47,740 bases of DNA, taken from NCBI GenBank assembly GCA_040182905.1, contig JARQWU010000051.1, positions 1 to 47,740 of the forward strand, in the 5' to 3' direction. The notes beneath the pieces were generated by a model. That model saw only the letters and a list, made by a program, of their open reading frames with translations, searched no databases and was not told the origin of the DNA. A program made the position numbers and the translations under genes. This document shows positions 740 to 41,547 of the stretch, in pieces. Each line of letters starts with the position of its first letter. The stretch's first letter is position 1. The DNA is from Barthelona sp. PAP020. Lineage: Eukaryota.

Positions 740-820
740 TATTAATTATATGAATTGAAAACCTCATTTAATTCTCACTGTTTTCAAGCTAACAAATCAA
801 AATCACAGGCATAATTAATA
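740..820 (-). promoter_or_regulatory. Candidate eukaryotic SECIS element (GUGA-type core) in the 3' UTR of ORF 854-1000
   Basis: Minus-strand RNA: UAUUAAUUAUG-CCU-GUGAU-UUUGAUUUGU-UAGCUUGAAAACAGU-GAGAAUUAAA-UGAG-GUUUUCAAUUCA-UAUAAUUAAUA. It has an 11-bp helix I, a UGAN/NGAN quartet (GTGA at 803-806, TGAG at 763-766), an 8-bp continuous helix II and a small apical stem. The canonical apical AAR is replaced by UAG, so it is atypical. Confidence 0.5.
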
Positions 821-853
821 TCTTCCACTTCAAATCAATAATTTAACAAATAA

Positions 854-1000
854 TTAATTGTTAACAACACGATTAGAAGAGGAACCTAATTTTGAACCCT
901 TACCCCAACCAGAAGCAGTGGTTGTTTTGGTATTGGTATTCGTATTTCTATTCTTTGGAGCTACAATCGGAGTCCAAGGTTGTTGCGGACGTCAACCCAT
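854..1000 (-). CDS. Candidate 48-aa selenoprotein, MG(U)RPQQPWTPIVAPKNRNTNTNTKTTTASGWGKGSKLGSSSNRVVNN, with SHP-like p97-binding box
   Basis: AAAA-ATG-GGT-TGA-CGT-CCG... The frame stays open for 45 codons after the TGA (992-994) until TAA (854-856). The stretch is GC-richer than its flanks. WGKGSKLG resembles the Derlin-type SHP box WGxGxxLG. A SECIS-like hairpin begins about 34 nt downstream. Confidence 0.55.
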
Positions 1001-1171
1001 TTTTCTGTTATTAAAAAAAAATAATACTTTTTTGGAGATGTAAAAAAACAAAAAAAAAGCAGATAAACGAAAGATTTATTAAAAATTAATGCAGAAATGA
1101 AATCGAAGATTTAGAATTTTAAAAAATAAAAATAAAAGCAATTGCAAATTCAATCAATTTCATATGCAGAC

Positions 1172-1739
1172 TTAATTCCTTAAAATTTGATCCAAAGCCT
1201 TTTGCAATGTTCTAAATTTCTTTTTATTCCCATTTGATGTTTGTTGTTCTAAATTTGGAATATGTTGAACAGTTTGATAGTTACTTTCCTTTGTAATGAT
1301 AAAATCATCGCCAACAATATCATCTTCTTCCCATTTAAGTTCTTTATAATATTGATGTGCTATATTATTGAAAAGTTCTTGAATTTTTGGATCAACATTT
1401 TCATTAATGGCCAATTCTTCCTTTTTTCTTTGGATAAGTCTTCTGTTTATTTCGTCTTCAGTAACATCTATCAAAGTGTCCTGGAAACTTTTATCAATTC
1501 CTTCGATTTTATATTTAAATTCATCAAAGAATTCTGATGATACGATAGTGTACGTCATTTTACCCTTTTCAGGTCCTTTACCTACAAAATATTAGCCAAC
1601 ATAATAAATAAAAACAATAAATACACAATACAATATTTCCACTATATCCAAAGTCATCAGCATAAACATGATACAATCCGTTTTCTCTATCATTATTGAC
1701 AACAATTACTTGCCCAAATGCCAATGGTCTACTATTCAT
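1172..1739 (-). CDS. LSM12: LSM12-like protein (Lsm N-terminus plus AD domain), 174 aa, two exons (1625-1739, 1172-1581)
   Basis: C-terminal V.P.IQELFNNI....KELKWEEDDIV...IIT..Y pattern resembles the LSM12 AD domain. Removing a 43-nt GTATTT...CTAAT...TAG intron (1582-1624) extends the frame to an ATG at 1739 (MNSRPLAFGQVIVV...). Confidence 0.6.
1582..1624 (-). other. 43-nt spliceosomal intron (phase 1)
   Basis: GTATTT donor, GGCTAAT branch-like site, TTTTGTAG acceptor. Splicing joins two open frames into 525 nt (175 codons including stop). Confidence 0.8.
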
Positions 1740-4419: not shown

Positions 4420-5485
4420 ATGCCACCAGTATTTATATTTTTTTATACATATTCATTCTAATTTAATATAGAAAAAGAAAAAAGTTAAAAAGGTCAAGAA
4501 ACCAGCACCACCAAAATTTGTATTTGCAGATGGTTTGGAACCCAAACAAAAAATGAAACAAATGCGTGATTTATATCGAAATAATTGTACAGAACTTCAA
4601 ATTGATCCGTTAAAAGTTTTGATGGATCAATTTCGAGATATTATCAATAAAAATGATGAAGAACCTGCTGTTATTGAACAATTAACAATTAATGAAGAAA
4701 TATCTCCTCAACAATTGCAAGCTATTGTGAGTGTCTTTCTAAATTATCAATATCTTAAAAAGTTTTGTTTGTGGAAATCTAATATTTCAGATGAAGGTTG
4801 CGCCATATTGTCTCATTATTTGATTAGAAATAATTATATTGAAGAATTAGATTTAATGCAAAATAACATTGGTTCACGTGGATGTTCAGCACTTGCTGGA
4901 GTTTTGTATAATCAAAACACCTCATTAAAAACATTAATTTTGGATCATAATCAGATTGGGGATGAAGGCGCTATATTATTGGTTAATGGATTGAGAACAA
5001 ATCCTTCGTTAAAAACTTTATCTCTTCAATTTTGTGGTATAGGTATTACTGGTGGTGTTGTTATTGGTCGTGATTTATTGGGTGAGGACAGTCTTTGTCA
5101 TTTGGAAACTTTGTTATTGCAAGGTAATCCAACTTCTTCTCCAACATTTGAAGCGATTGGTTTATCGTTGAAAACAAACACTAACCTTAAAGAGATCAAT
5201 CTTAAAGACACTGCCATTGATGCTAATCTTGAGGCAGCTTCTATTTTTGCTGAAGGAGCAGCAAATTGTCCCACATTAACAACTATTAATTTACATTACA
5301 ATTTGTTGAATAAAGAAGCGGGAATTGCTTTTATTGATATGGTCAAAACAAACAGAAGCATTATTAGTTTATCTGTTCCTCATCATGTTGGTACTGAAGT
5401 GTTAACTGAACTTATTGCTGCTATTGAAGATAATCTTAAGTTGTTGAAACCAGTGAAAAAGAAAAAGAAAAAAAAAACAAAATAG
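4420..5485 (+). CDS. RNI-like leucine-rich repeat protein with lysine-rich termini, two exons (4420-4428, 4472-5485)
   Basis: Repeated LxxLxLxxNxIGxxG units. A 9-nt first exon (ATG CCA CCA) and a 43-nt intron give MPPKKKKVKKVKKPAPPKF... in frame with the tracked ORF. Poly-K C-terminus. Confidence 0.85.
4429..4471 (+). other. 43-nt spliceosomal intron (phase 0)
   Basis: GTATTT donor, TTCTAAT branch-like site, TATAG acceptor. Splicing supplies an ATG start for the LRR ORF. Confidence 0.85.
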
Positions 5486-22401: not shown

Positions 22402-23532
22402 ATGGAGAATGATTTTACTAATTTTGTGTTTTACATGAATCAAACCATAGAATTGTGTGTAAGTCGTGAACCAGGTAAAGCTTGGATGTCCAAACAACCT
22501 GATGAAAATAGAACTGTTCAATGTATGGCTTGTTCTCATTTTTGCAAAATACCAGCTGGAAAATTGGGGAGATGTAATGTTCGTTACAATAATGAGGGAA
22601 CTTTGGAATTGTTAATATATTCCAGAGTTATTGCTGTACATATTGACCCCATTGAAAAGAAACCCTTGTATAATTTCTATCCAGGTCAAACAATATATTC
22701 GATTGGAACAATTGGTTGTAATTTTAGATGTACTTTTTGTCAAAATTGGTCCATTGCACATGTTTTAAATGATAAAGATTTGAGGCAAAGTCGTTTCAAT
22801 GCTGAAAGTGTCACTGATATTGAAGATGCAGATAGTTTTGGCAGATTTCTTTCGCCTGAAGAAGCGGTTAGAAAAACAATTCAAAATGGTTGTTCAATGG
22901 TTGCTACAACATACAATGAACCTACTATTTTTTTTGAATATATGTATGATATTTTTAGATTAGCAAAAGAAAGAGATTTGAAAACTGTGATGGTTACAAA
23001 TGGTTTCATAAGTGAAACAGCTTTACGAACATTATCTCCCTATTTGGATGCAATGAACATCGATCTAAAAGCATATACAGATGATTTTTACAGAAAAACA
23101 TGTGGAGGTCGATTGGAACCCGTAAAACAAACAATTCGTTTGGCTTATGAACTGGGTGTTCATGTTGAAGTTACTACTTTACTTATTGAAGGGCAAAACA
23201 CAAATGAGAATGAGGTTGAGGAATTGGTAACGTTTTTGGCAAGCGTTTCAACTGATATTCCATGGCATATTAGTGCCGCTCATCCAGATTACAAACAATT
23301 GGATATAAAAAGAACCACAGTTCAAACTTTGGAAAAAGCATATGCAATTGGTAGAAAGCACAATATCAAGTATATCTATCTTGGAAATGTTTATACTGAC
23401 ACAGGTAGAGATACCATTTGTCCGGGTTGTGGAAAAGTTTTGGTTAAGAGAAGTGGATTCAATGTACTGAGGAATGAAATGTCTGATAGTTATTGTCCTT
23501 TTTGTAATTATGAAGTCTATGGTCGTTTCTAA
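22402..23532 (+). CDS. amrS: AmmeMemoRadiSam-system radical SAM enzyme (PFL-activase-like family)
   Basis: N-terminal VQCxxCxxxC...GRCNVR, DPIEKKPLYNFYPG, radical SAM GCNFRCTFCQNW, TYNEPTIF, MVTNG, NIDLKA, VEVTTLLI, IPWHIS..HPDY and C-terminal YLGNV..T.CPGC..CPFC. Confidence 0.88.
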   Translation: MENDFTNFVFYMNQTIELCVSREPGKAWMSKQPDENRTVQCMACSHFCKIPAGKLGRCNVRYNNEGTLELLIYSRVIAVHIDPIEKKPLYNFYPGQTIYSIGTIGCNFRCTFCQNWSIAHVLNDKDLRQSRFNAESVTDIEDADSFGRFLSPEEAVRKTIQNGCSMVATTYNEPTIFFEYMYDIFRLAKERDLKTVMVTNGFISETALRTLSPYLDAMNIDLKAYTDDFYRKTCGGRLEPVKQTIRLAYELGVHVEVTTLLIEGQNTNENEVEELVTFLASVSTDIPWHISAAHPDYKQLDIKRTTVQTLEKAYAIGRKHNIKYIYLGNVYTDTGRDTICPGCGKVLVKRSGFNVLRNEMSDSYCPFCNYEVYGRF

Positions 23533-30122: not shown

Positions 30123-30447
30123 ATGGATTCAAGTTATATTAAAAAACAACAAGAGCAACAGTGAGACAATTATTTCCAACTAGAAATTAATATTTAGTCA
30201 AAAGAAACAACAGGAAGAAGAGTTTCGTCAACAAGCCATGTTATCGTTGCTTAAACCCGAAGCCATTGAACGTTTATCACGAGTTAGAATGGTCAATCCT
30301 GATTTAGCTGTTAGGGTTGAAAATGAATTGATTGGAAAGGCCCGAAGTGGTAGATTGACAAATCCTTTAACTGATGAAGAGTTACGTCGTGTTTTAGAGG
30401 AAAAAAGTGATGCGAATAGATCTACTGTTACCTTTATTAGAAGATGA
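30123..30447 (+). CDS. PDCD5: Programmed cell death protein 5 / dsDNA-binding protein, two exons (30123-30160, 30198-30447)
   Basis: LL.PEA.ERLSRVRMVNP..A..VEN.LI..ARSG.L...LTDEEL...L and terminal V.F.RR. A 37-nt GTGAGA...TTAATATTTAG intron links it in frame to the ATG at 30123. Confidence 0.9.
30161..30197 (+). other. 37-nt spliceosomal intron (phase 2)
   Basis: GTGAGA donor, ATTAAT branch-like site, TTTAG acceptor. Restores a continuous PDCD5 frame. Confidence 0.8.
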
Positions 30448-30536: not shown

Positions 30537-31538
30537 TCAATATAAAGAGCTTCCATTGCCATTCCACAAATTGTTCCTATCCTGACTGTCATCTTTTTTC
30601 CCATTATCTATTAAATCTGTCATATTTCTGTAATTTGTTCTTTTTCTTGTTCTCTGAACATTAGTGTTCCAATCAGCATCTCTTCTTTGATCGGAAGAAT
30701 TGGAGCTGTTGTTTTGATTGAATTCAAACGACTCAGTCATATTTGCTGATGGTTTAAAAGAAAGAATGAATGATTTAAAAAAAGCTAAGAGACAAATATA
30801 CAGAAATACGATTTTTTCCTTTAATTTAGATACAAAAACATTAGCATTTGTTTGTAGTTCTTTTACTTTTTCTTGAATAACATTTGGGTTCGATTCTTCT
30901 GTCTCTATCATTTCTAAAGTGGCAATACAATGTGGAAATAATTCAAAATCATTCACAGTTTTTTTATTAGTTGGATTGTAAATGAATGTCAGGTCTTTTA
31001 TATTTAATAGAAACATATATTTGTCAATATTCCATTCATTTTCAATGAATTCAAATATTTCAAAGATAGGGGTACTCTCAGTCACATCGATAACCATTGT
31101 TTTACCTTCAGGATGTCGAATTAGAATGGTTCCATTCATATTTTCTGCATTTTTTTCTTTCAATTCATTTTTAGTTTCAAAATTTTCCCTTTTTTCCTTT
31201 TTTTCAACTTCAGGAGAAGTTAGATCTAACTTTAATATCATCGGTTTTCTAACTGGCTTTTTTACTTCAAAAATTTCCTCAAAACGACGACATTCTCTTA
31301 AAATAAATTGATGGTTTACAATATCACCTTTTGCAAACATAGGAAGGGAAACAAATGCCTCCTCAATAAAATCATCACTATTCACATCATAATATGCCCA
31401 TAACTTATCACTATTCTCTTTCAAATAATCAGAAATCTGTATTGAAATACTGGGCTCATTTGCATTCAGTATTATCACATGGACGTTCTGTTGGTCTTTT
31501 GATGGGAGTAATTCGGTCAAAGCAATCAATTCATCCAT
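30537..31538 (-). CDS. UBXN4: UBXN4/erasin (Ubx7)-like UBX-domain protein
   Basis: Central UBX-like segment (ILIRHPEG...KTVNDFELFP), hydrophobic hairpin (IVFLYICLLAFF) and the C-terminal N.WNGN.S motif characteristic of UBXN4. Confidence 0.7.
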   Translation of the reverse strand: MDELIALTELLPSKDQQNVHVIILNANEPSISIQISDYLKENSDKLWAYYDVNSDDFIEEAFVSLPMFAKGDIVNHQFILRECRRFEEIFEVKKPVRKPMILKLDLTSPEVEKKEKRENFETKNELKEKNAENMNGTILIRHPEGKTMVIDVTESTPIFEIFEFIENEWNIDKYMFLLNIKDLTFIYNPTNKKTVNDFELFPHCIATLEMIETEESNPNVIQEKVKELQTNANVFVSKLKEKIVFLYICLLAFFKSFILSFKPSANMTESFEFNQNNSSNSSDQRRDADWNTNVQRTRKRTNYRNMTDLIDNGKKDDSQDRNNLWNGNGSSLY

Positions 31539-34711: not shown

Positions 34712-35004
34712 TTGAATGTTTTAAAAGGAAAAAATTGAAAAAAATTATTTTGATTGAGTTGTTGTCTTTATTCTTCAGAGAAATCGTTTTGACATAATAA
34801 TTTCACATGAAAATTTATATTATTTCTATTAAATGGGAAAAGCACGTTTGTTTTTCTAATTTATTTATTTTTGAAAAAGACCAAAAAACGCTAATAATGA
34901 ATCTTTTGGAAAAGCTCAAATGGAATTGTATAAATTTATAAATAAAAACAAAAGAAAAGCAAAAAAAAATAATATTTGGTCTCATCAAATAAGTTTTCAT
35001 TTAC

Positions 35005-35280
35005 GTTTATAGACGCCCTGATTATCGTAACAGAGAGAGATAATCACATACGTAGACAAAGTTTCCAATATTGGAAGTGATTAGTAACAATCGTTTTGGC
35101 GGTAAAGTGAAATAGATCTACATAAGTTTTATTTTCTGCTCTATACAGCAAGCCCACATTCTAAGATTACGTATTTTTTTTTTTTTAAAAAAGAAGGCTA
35201 CCCTTCGACATCAATTACGCTCAAGACAAGTTCGATCACCCCAATAAAATCCCAAACTCTCAGAAACAAAGTCTATAAAC
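35005..35280. ncRNA. Candidate structured non-coding RNA (class unknown)
   Basis: Perfect terminal inverted repeat GTTTATAGAC (35005-35014) / GTCTATAAAC (35271-35280) encloses a GC-elevated, ORF-free stretch with several hairpins: GATTATC/GATAATC, TTCCAA/TTGGAA, GTAGA/TCTAC, TGCT/AGCA and GAAGG/CCTTC. Confidence 0.45.
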
Positions 35281-40123: not shown

Positions 40124-41547
40124 ATGTAATGGGGATATTGTCTAGCAAATGCATAATCTCACAAAAGAATTGTGTGACAAAGCGACATATGTTCTGTTTA
40201 CCTTGCTCGTTTCCCCCGAAACGGAACAACGTGATTCCATGAGGATAAAGTTGTAAGAGCTCATTCAACACCTTTCAAATTCTTTTAGACATCTTTCAAA
40301 TATCTTATGTTTTAAGCGAAGAATTAATGAAAAATAATATTTAGGAGTTATTTTCTTGGAAAATTAGTGAGAATAGTGTGAGAAGAATTGAAAATGTCAT
40401 CAAAGATTTTGTTGCTGACTGTGTTTTTCTTCCAAATGGCAAACATTTAGTAGTTACCGATGAAATTGCATGTGTTCGTATCATTGATATTGAAACTGGA
40501 AAAGAATTTTGTAATTTCAAAGACTATGGAAGTGCTACCTTTGATATTGTAATTCCACCAGATAAACAACTGTTTGTGACATATTCCGCTGACTTCTGTA
40601 TTAATATATGCAGCATTGAAGTTTCTCCATTTTAAGATGCTTAGTAAATGATTGGCAAATTTTTGGAATTTTCCAGTTGTTTAAATTATATATATATTCT
40701 GGTGATTATGTTGGAGCTATTAAGAAATGGGAAATAAATAGCGGAAATGTTGTTTTTCAAGATTTTTTTTCATTCTACTTGGATTTGGAGATTGAAACTC
40801 TCATTAGAAGGTAAACACCTTTTTAGTGCAAGCAAAGATAAGACTGTTAAGTTAATTGACACTGAAAATCATTCACTTATACATACGTTTTCACATGATG
40901 GTTGTTGTAGAGCTATTTACTTCCATCCTACCCAAAGAATTATTGCTGTTTGTGATGAAGCATATTTCGTTAAGCTCTGGAACATGGATGATGGGTCGTG
41001 CATAGAATCTTTGAGTCTGATGGATTGTATGCTCTAAAATTTTATTCACCCCCCATTCTGATGGCCATGTGTGGTGATGGTTTTCTTATCTATTTTGATG
41101 CTATAAATTATCAAGAAATCCAAAGAATTGCCTGTATGTGCGATCTTTATACGTTTTCATTTGCGTTTTCCCCTAATTTAAAACAATTTTGTTGTGGAAG
41201 ATGTGATGGATCTGTGTTGAATGCCGTGAGTCAAGAGCCGACTTAACCCCTATACATGTATATTCAACTGAACTTGTTCATGCAAGTTGTCTCAATTCAA
41301 GACTTTTTGAACTTGCGAGGAATAACGATGGGCATGTATTATCTATTCTTATTGATATGAATGGTGACACCAGTATTATTTGACAGTTGGTGTTGATATG
41401 TGTTCACATGAATCAACAAGATTTTATAAGATTGTCAATTTGTGTTGTGATTTGATTGACTTCAATAAAAACGATGGAGGTAACATGCATATGTTTATAA
41501 CAGAAAATAGAGATGAAAGTGATGAAAGTGACAAAGATAGTGATTAG
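40124..41547 (+). pseudogene. WD40-repeat protein pseudogene (boundaries approximate)
   Basis: WD40 blades (FLPNGKHLV, LFVTYSAD, LFSASKDKTVKLID, FHPTQRIIA..VKLWNM, FSPNLKQF) are split among ORFs 40378-40635, 40747-41037 and 40998-41246 by frameshifts. An in-frame TAG lies upstream at about 40342, and an acidic tail ends at TAG near 41547. Confidence 0.75.

Follow-up and report, generated by a model that had tools for sequence, protein, structure and literature searches.

Does the UGA at the third codon of a very small open reading frame (ORF) in Barthelona sp. PAP020 encode selenocysteine (Sec), or is it the mark of a broken gene? The frame lies on the minus strand of contig JARQWU010000051.1, and a sequence-only reading had taken it for a micro-selenoprotein with a p97-binding box and a SECIS element in its 3' flank. 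UGA codon 3 is probably read as Sec with the help of a downstream hairpin of k-turn geometry (rough probability 0.55), which would make the gene an orphan micro-selenoprotein.

The window, that is, the whole stretch of DNA analysed (47,740 nt), is 29% GC, gene-dense, intron-poor, eukaryotic and written in the standard code. Its 22 long genes stop at TAA (15), TGA (4) or TAG (3). Genome-wide reassignment of TGA was rejected, since four of the 22 genes stop at TGA and long ORFs exist without need for readthrough. Genes recognized by Pfam or NCBIfam encode a dynein assembly factor 5-like protein, an LSM12-like protein, an OST subunit, a RasGEF and a prokaryote-type AmmeMemoRadiSam enzyme. The encoded proteins are highly divergent; the OST subunit matched itself alone among 5.8 billion clusters. 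Gene content, intron style and this divergence would suit a sparsely sampled flagellated protist, perhaps an anaerobe. No tRNA genes were found within the window. The AmmeMemoRadiSam system radical SAM enzyme (22402-23532, plus strand; TIGR04337, 310 bits against a cut-off of 220) is intact, and its presence in a eukaryote may possibly reflect lateral transfer from prokaryotes.

The micro-ORF and its coding signal

The features around the micro-ORF are as follows.

854..1000, minus strand: micro-ORF of 48 codons, ATG to TAA, with one in-frame TGA; unannotated
992..994, minus strand: in-frame TGA, codon 3, candidate Sec
1001..1030, minus strand: start context, a T-run and then AAAA before the ATG
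1172..1739, minus strand: upstream neighbour of the micro-ORF, a complete LSM12-like gene (Pfam AD) that ends at a TAA of its own and is interrupted by a 43-nt intron (1624-1582)
858..1043, plus strand: opposite-strand open frame of 61 codons with a hydrophobic stretch; a rival reading, judged a shadow
4429-4471 (plus), 1582-1624 (minus) and 30161-30197 (plus): introns of 43, 43 and 37 nt

The start proposed from the sequence alone, AAAA-ATG-GGT-TGA, is present at 1004-992 (minus). As had also been claimed, 45 further sense codons follow the TGA before a TAA at 856-854, giving 48 residues if the TGA encodes Sec, and the ORF forms a GC-richer island (GC 0.42 compared with 0.24 in the non-coding DNA of the window). 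The start context outscores those of 17 of the 22 likely true starts and is equalled by 23 of 1,839 other ATGs (top 1.3%). No in-frame ATG was found upstream of position 1000 on the minus strand. The micro-ORF was rejected as an extra exon of the LSM12-like gene, which ends at its own TAA, with no in-frame ATG upstream of 1000. A possible 23-nt intron in the 5' UTR (1027-1005, minus) would leave the ORF unaffected. The base after the codon-3 TGA is C, and after the four true TGA stops of the 22 genes it is T or A; UGA followed by C is a leaky stop context. A hairpin immediately 3' of the UGA that could assist its redefinition as Sec was unsupported (z about 0).

An open frame of this length is unremarkable in itself, as some frame has one in 7,470 of 20,000 shuffles of the island. 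Codon use was scored with a model trained on the 22 window genes, and the contrast is favoured by the presence of the non-coding frame-windows in the training set. With 19.1 bits the micro-ORF exceeds every one of 2,244 non-coding frame-windows, the best of which reaches 16.4, and it also outscores 68% of 247 coding windows. Among 26 micro-ORFs in non-coding DNA that start with ATG and contain a TGA, it alone scores positive, and in a composition-matched test no equally scoring open frame arose in 20,000 dinucleotide shuffles. Its lead over the next-best frame, on the opposite strand, is only 1.7 bits (19.1 vs 17.4), smaller than the lead of 98% of coding windows, and codons 4-15, which include two rare CCG codons, show no frame preference.

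This small lead bears on a very unlikely reading, in which the plus-strand frame at 858-1043 is the source of the coding signal, with the micro-ORF as its shadow, or the island is non-coding. The plus-strand frame would encode a small membrane-like peptide resembling a single-pass membrane segment. However, its only in-frame ATG is its last codon, inspection by eye yielded no fitting exon or intron upstream, it has no Pfam match, and in a composition-independent test it scored 8.9 vs 13.0 for the micro-ORF. The minus-strand frame, in contrast, has start, stop and hairpin in the correct order. The minus-strand gene is judged to be real, or recently real.

A UGA could also be removed by splicing. 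The three introns of the window are AT-rich (GC 0.12-0.24) and each lies near the gene start, within the first 40 codons. Their donors are GTATTT, GTATTT and GTGAGA; the two that have GTATTT in common also have CTAAT exactly 6 nt 5' of the TAG, and a TAAT or TAAC branch-like word is present in all three. The 37-nt intron accounts for the absence of a PDCD5-like gene (Pfam dsDNA_bind; 30123-30447, plus strand) from the ORF list. The sole candidate intron spanning the micro-ORF TGA is a 36-nt GT-AG segment at 996-961, whose removal would leave a Sec-free peptide of 36 residues with the same C-terminal motif. It has GT...TAG ends, a length that is a multiple of three and close to 37-43 nt, and a position like that of the window introns, which lie a few codons past the ATG; the absent frame preference and the rare CCG codons of codons 4-15 would also fit. 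Against this, its GC content is 0.53, its donor GTTGAC is unlike the others and it has no TAAT or TAAC, the intron model consisting of three examples; in addition, splicing leaves the hairpin unexplained. Such an intron is a poor candidate and very improbable, and no candidate of the window's own kind (37-43 nt, GC 0.12-0.24, TAAT near the 3' end) spans the UGA. One mark of a eukaryotic selenoprotein gene, a coding-like ORF with an in-frame UGA and a different terminal stop, is present at this locus.

The hairpin in the 3' flank

Three features lie downstream of the TAA.

740..821, minus strand: SECIS-like element in the 3' flank of the micro-ORF
760..810, minus strand: k-turn geometry within the hairpin, with a GCC/GGU C-stem, 3-nt bulge UGU, tandem G.A/A.G, U.U and an 8-pair helix
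566..611, minus strand: second, more distal SECIS-pattern match, AUGA...AA...CGAU, which passes the strict pattern

A hairpin had been placed about 34 nt after the TAA, and it was confirmed there, the lower helix beginning at 820. This helix (820-811/749-740) is an inverted repeat whose 10-nt arms are 100% complementary. The core consists of GUGAU (806-802) and UGAG (766-763), with the quartet U.G, G.A, A.G and U.U, and above it stand the eight contiguous pairs of helix II (801-794/774-767) and an apical mini-stem. The conserved apical position (790-789) is AG, not AA, and the 3' core is closed by G, not by A or U. The core lies 186 nt from the UGA; the range of minimum UGA-SECIS distances starts at 51 nt (PMC3753652, in excerpt).

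The locus has much in common with genes carrying type II SECIS elements (PMC3753652 and PMC2375036, both in excerpt): an in-frame UGA, a non-UGA stop and a 3' stem-loop whose UGAN/NGAN core lies 11-12 nt from the unpaired apical position and which ends in a mini-stem. A G before the core is shared with the SECIS elements of Ostreococcus (PMC2375036, in excerpt). It differs from type II elements in having AG for AA(A), UGAG for KGAW, weaker folding and a C-stem that can adjoin the bulge, and from known selenoprotein families in that the micro-ORF has no homology to any of them and no redox motif.

How often such a hairpin arises by chance depends on how it is described. Eight contiguous pairs on the core were found in one of 24 gene 3' flanks, that of the micro-ORF, the other flanks having three or fewer; in the window as a whole four RUGA sites carry such an 8-pair helix, the other three inside genes. 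Simulated 200-nt flanks contained an 8-pair core in 33 of 10,000 cases, and a lower helix too in 7, while shuffles of the real flank yielded such a hairpin in 18 of 20,000. These tight criteria were chosen after the element had been seen. A looser criterion (8 of the first 10 pairs, any core base) accepted 706 of 10,000 simulated flanks and the flanks of two other genes, and looser criteria overall give a chance rate of 1.8-7%. The k-turn geometry with at least five helix pairs occurs at this site alone in 95 kb (both strands), and at 3-5 sites per 5 Mb of simulated non-coding DNA. Overall, chance would account for such a hairpin in about 0.1-4% of flanks, according to the criterion chosen; the hairpin exceeds chance moderately.

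By the published descriptions of SECIS elements the hairpin is an atypical case. The filter limits of SECISearch3 (a tandem G.A/A.G core whose 5' side is UGAN, helix II of 7-15 pairs, apical loop of 8-30 nt, energy ≤ -4 kcal/mol; PMC3753652, in excerpt) were checked by hand, and the hairpin falls within them (stem 8, loop 19 nt, energy -6.9). Four published SECISearch1 patterns (strict, default, loose and loose+; PMC3753652, in excerpt) were re-coded; the first three reject the hairpin at 821-740 and loose+ alone accepts it, a pattern with 214 hits in the window that also accepts 6,919 of 54,796 simulated 150-nt flanks (12.6%). The strict or default pattern is passed by 3.8% of simulated 330-nt flanks. 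An unpaired AA (or CC) 11-13 nt after the core is absent, with AG in its place. The 3' core is UGAG where KGAW is described (PMC3753652, in excerpt), while the SECISearch1 patterns require NGAN only. The upper stem (-3.1 vs -3.7 kcal/mol) and the whole element (-11.7 vs -12.6 kcal/mol) fall short of the cut-offs in the excerpted text of PMC2375036. The SECIS register (-11.4) lies 0.3 kcal/mol from the minimum-energy fold (-11.7), folding z-scores are weak (-0.55 to -0.93), and the pair probability of helix II is 0.10-0.12, or 0.001 with the ORF included. No SECIS family of Rfam matched at E up to 10. Non-metazoan SECIS elements are the hardest to predict (PMC3753652, in excerpt).

An alternative helix of eight pairs, UUGAAAAC with GUUUUCAA, was seen by eye at 787-754 (minus). 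It could close a second GUGA/UGA pair via the same 3' GA, so that two mutually exclusive folds are possible.

The second SECIS-pattern match (611-566) is poorly paired beside its core and is one of 14 strict-pattern matches in the window; it is possibly due to chance. It lies in a GC-richer island (490-650, minus) that has a TATA-like word before it, at about 675-668, and long runs of T after it, and that has no Rfam or Pfam match; a small RNA, a distal SECIS element and a decayed gene are all possible identities of this island. Another GC-richer island, at about 34950-35220 between two genes, was without a match in Rfam and, in all six frames, in Pfam.

The hairpin could be a real k-turn with some other role, as a small box C/D-like RNA or a site for an L7Ae-family protein, the UGA then being leaky or the ORF untranslated. 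In the standard k-turn layout the C-stem directly adjoins the 3-nt bulge, as it does here, unlike the long internal loop usual in SECIS elements. A C/D snoRNA is among the weak matches in Rfam (E 2.9), and the UGA-C context would fit leaky readthrough. However, the boxes are 35 nt apart and mostly paired, which leaves no guide, the Rfam match (13.8 bits) is far under its threshold of 45, and the coincidence with an upstream in-frame UGA is unexplained. A role of this kind is very unlikely; U4 snRNA or a snoRNA, having no Rfam support, was rejected.

Selenocysteine or a broken gene

The main rival is that a small gene has lately been broken, or that the sequence shows a null allele or an assembly error. 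In this reading a single change turned a sense codon at position 3, such as one for Cys, Gly, Arg or Trp, into TGA, and the hairpin arose by chance. When intact, the gene would have encoded an unexceptional MG-x peptide of small size that carried an SHP-like motif. Decaying genes do occur in the window. A carbohydrate (glycogen/starch) phosphorylase pseudogene at about 13138-10870 (minus), with otherwise intact genes around it and a Pfam match that spans all three frames, carries about 17 lesions in 2,269 nt (5 TGA, 4 TAA and 8 frameshifts), and a WD40-repeat pseudogene at about 40290-41100 (plus) carries four in 810 nt (about 1 stop and 3 frameshifts); these counts come from a crude path search, which gave 0 for five intact controls. 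At the pseudogene lesion rate a 147-nt gene carries about 1.1 lesions, and the probability of exactly one, a TGA, is about 0.11. In addition, DNA at 1-650 looks decayed or non-coding, and the hairpin is non-canonical and unstable. Against a broken gene, the remaining ORF, the start context and the stop are all intact. Furthermore, a GA/GA-core hairpin would have to be present by chance (0.07-0.4% when the criteria are tight, 4% when a SECIS-like element of either kind within 330 nt is counted), and no such hairpin is found in the 23 other gene flanks.

The two readings can be compared by rough odds, using our own estimates. For a pseudogene, a prior of 0.1, the factor of 0.11 and a chance hairpin at 0.001-0.04 give 1e-5 to 4e-4. 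For Sec, a prior of about 5e-4 (half of such lineages use Sec, one gene in 1,000) and a factor of 0.3 for an atypical SECIS element give 1.5e-4. The ranges overlap, and the central value roughly favours Sec two- to threefold. A broken gene is somewhat unlikely yet a serious alternative; if that is what the locus holds, it is an ordinary decaying micro-gene.

Sec insertion would proceed in two steps. The elements of the first are seen in the sequence: a good start, UGA at codon 3, coding-like codons, a TAA and a hairpin with a GA/GA core. By the known eukaryotic pathway, SBP2 would then bind the k-turn, eEFSec would bring Sec-tRNA and the ribosome would pass codon 3. As the UGA comes so early, failure would yield only the dipeptide Met-Gly, and output would be all-or-none with selenium supply.

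Sec use is patchy among anaerobic flagellates, so the lineage decides nothing. It is reported from Monocercomonoides, Paratrimastix, Trimastix and Spironucleus and absent from Giardia intestinalis and Trichomonas vaginalis (PMC6759080, PMC1805757, PMC10703272 and PMC3916229, in excerpt); in Spironucleus only three SelW-type proteins were found, according to these excerpts.

No relative of the 48-mer was recovered. There was no homologue at similar length, longer proteins gave three candidates, none of them at E up to 10, and no homologue was found in 1.84 billion representatives. A tblastn search of metagenome, viral and prokaryote contigs gave no relative with either Cys or Sec. Pfam and NCBIfam gave no relative (the single Pfam match had E 0.15), and in the PDB the sole match, to a designed PPR protein, was an artefact of summing over repeats. 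Contigs were also scanned for MG-[Sec/Cys]...GxGxxLG, with the shortest-gap match per ATG considered. In metagenomes this pattern occurs at at least 118 loci; among the matches listed 15 are in frame and open, three of them with TGA, and none is similar or has the hairpin. Viral contigs have 114 such loci, 12 in frame and three with TGA, none similar, and the hairpin pattern was found 0 times in them. The lack of relatives is weak evidence, since the collections include few such protists, gene callers halt at TGA, and the peptide is short and of low complexity. In the literature compared there is no selenoprotein with an N-terminal Gly-Sec or an SHP box, and the 186 new candidates of PMC3753652 could include a similar case. 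Selenium terms were not found in the available part of the PMC11316075 supplement, 'seleno' is absent from the main text of PMC6934886, and no earlier findings on this genome or sequence were found.

To pass the Seblastian filter, Sec must be flanked on either side by three conserved residues (PMC3753652, in excerpt). With two residues only before Sec, this gene would be missed by homology-based finders by design, a sign that such finders may be blind to the micro-selenoproteins of protists.

The peptide and its putative link to p97

The motif to which a role in p97 binding had been assigned is the following.

884..907, minus strand: SHP-like motif W-G-x-G-x-x-L-G (WGKGSKLG), residues 32-39 of the peptide

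The peptide is basic (7 K/R, no D/E) and Asn/Thr-rich, with no Cys and no hydrophobic segment. Single-sequence AlphaFold2 gave no secondary structure (pLDDT 66.7, pTM 0.15), and the peptide is predicted to be disordered. A CxxU-type redox motif is absent from it. If the UGA encodes Sec, this would be among the smallest selenoproteins; Sec would occupy position 2 of the mature chain, which would have neither a redox fold nor CxxU.

The box claimed by the sequence-only reading stands in part. The Trp and G-x-G-x-x-L are present and rare by chance: the pattern aromatic-x(0,1)-G-x-G-x-x-L-G, a motif chosen post hoc, occurs 0 times in 11,472 residues (21 window proteins) and in 11 of 200,000 shuffles of the peptide. 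A spacer residue and a second aromatic are missing. An SHP variant without the spacer is found in Derlin-1. The published SHP consensus is aromatic-X-G-X-G-X-X-L, with binding driven by two aromatics and the Leu; SHP is an auxiliary motif, and no cofactor is known to depend on it alone according to the excerpted text (PMC5559722). The peptide resembles the SHP regions of Derlin-1, UFD1 and p47 in having an aromatic residue, G-x-G-x-x-L and then G in a disordered stretch. It differs from them in that Trp directly precedes the first Gly, a second aromatic is lacking, and SHP would be the sole motif rather than an auxiliary one (PMC5559722, in excerpt).

SelK and SelS/VIMP are small, single-pass membrane selenoproteins linked to p97 and ERAD, with Sec at or near the C-terminus. 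Like them, the peptide is small, basic, Gly-containing, largely disordered and poorly conserved, its own p97 link being a candidate only. Unlike them, it lacks a hydrophobic segment and would carry Sec at residue 3, and there is no SelK or SelS Pfam match (E up to 1). Homology among SelK proteins is itself poor (PMC3753652, in excerpt).

With SVIP the peptide shares a Met-Gly start, a Cys-like residue near the N-terminus, a short p97 motif (putative in the peptide) and the lack of a catalytic domain. SVIP differs in being a 77-aa, VIM-binding protein, myristoylated at Gly2 and palmitoylated at Cys4 and Cys7, without Sec (PMC11310202 and PMC10641518, in excerpt); a VIM is absent from the peptide, which Pfam does not match to SVIP. 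As judged from sequence comparison, membership of SVIP, SelK or SelS is excluded. The N-terminus, G-U-R-P-Q, does not match the myristoylation consensus G-X-X-X-[S/T/C] with no Pro, and SVIP is myristoylated despite similar departures from it (PMC11310202, in excerpt).

If the UGA is read as Sec, removal of Met would expose an N-terminal Gly-Sec, the sole reactive residue of the peptide, at the place where small membrane-targeted proteins have an acylated Cys. In the last and weakest step, the N-domain of p97 might be extended by a strand formed from W-G-x-G-x-x-L-G; the peptide would then act as a minimal cofactor of p97, an analogue of SVIP with no relation to it. Given Sec insertion, a Gly-Sec N-terminus and docking on the p97 N-domain are together possible but short of probable. 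Taken over all steps, a role of the peptide as a minimal p97 adaptor is a plausible guess, though unlikely. The fullest proposal is also unlikely as a whole: a new lineage-restricted family comprising a 47-residue p97 cofactor with Gly-Sec replacing a Gly-Cys acylation site, a selenium switch at codon 3, a selenol or selenoester that might control p97 tethering, and an AG-type SECIS element with a perfect k-turn. Were the UGA read as Sec, selenium and p97 would be connected independently for a third time, SelK and SelS being the other two cases. The gene would also show how Sec behaves where an acylated residue is expected, and its AG-apex variant of SECIS could help to tune protist models.

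A p97 cofactor is likely to be encoded elsewhere in the window, to judge from a weak UBX-domain match (E 0.007) in the protein of 30537-31538 (minus). Eukaryote-like p97/CDC48 proteins are also encoded by giant-virus contigs (L119-L122), and that of L120 has a long insertion in its first ATPase domain which resembles an intein with a homing endonuclease.
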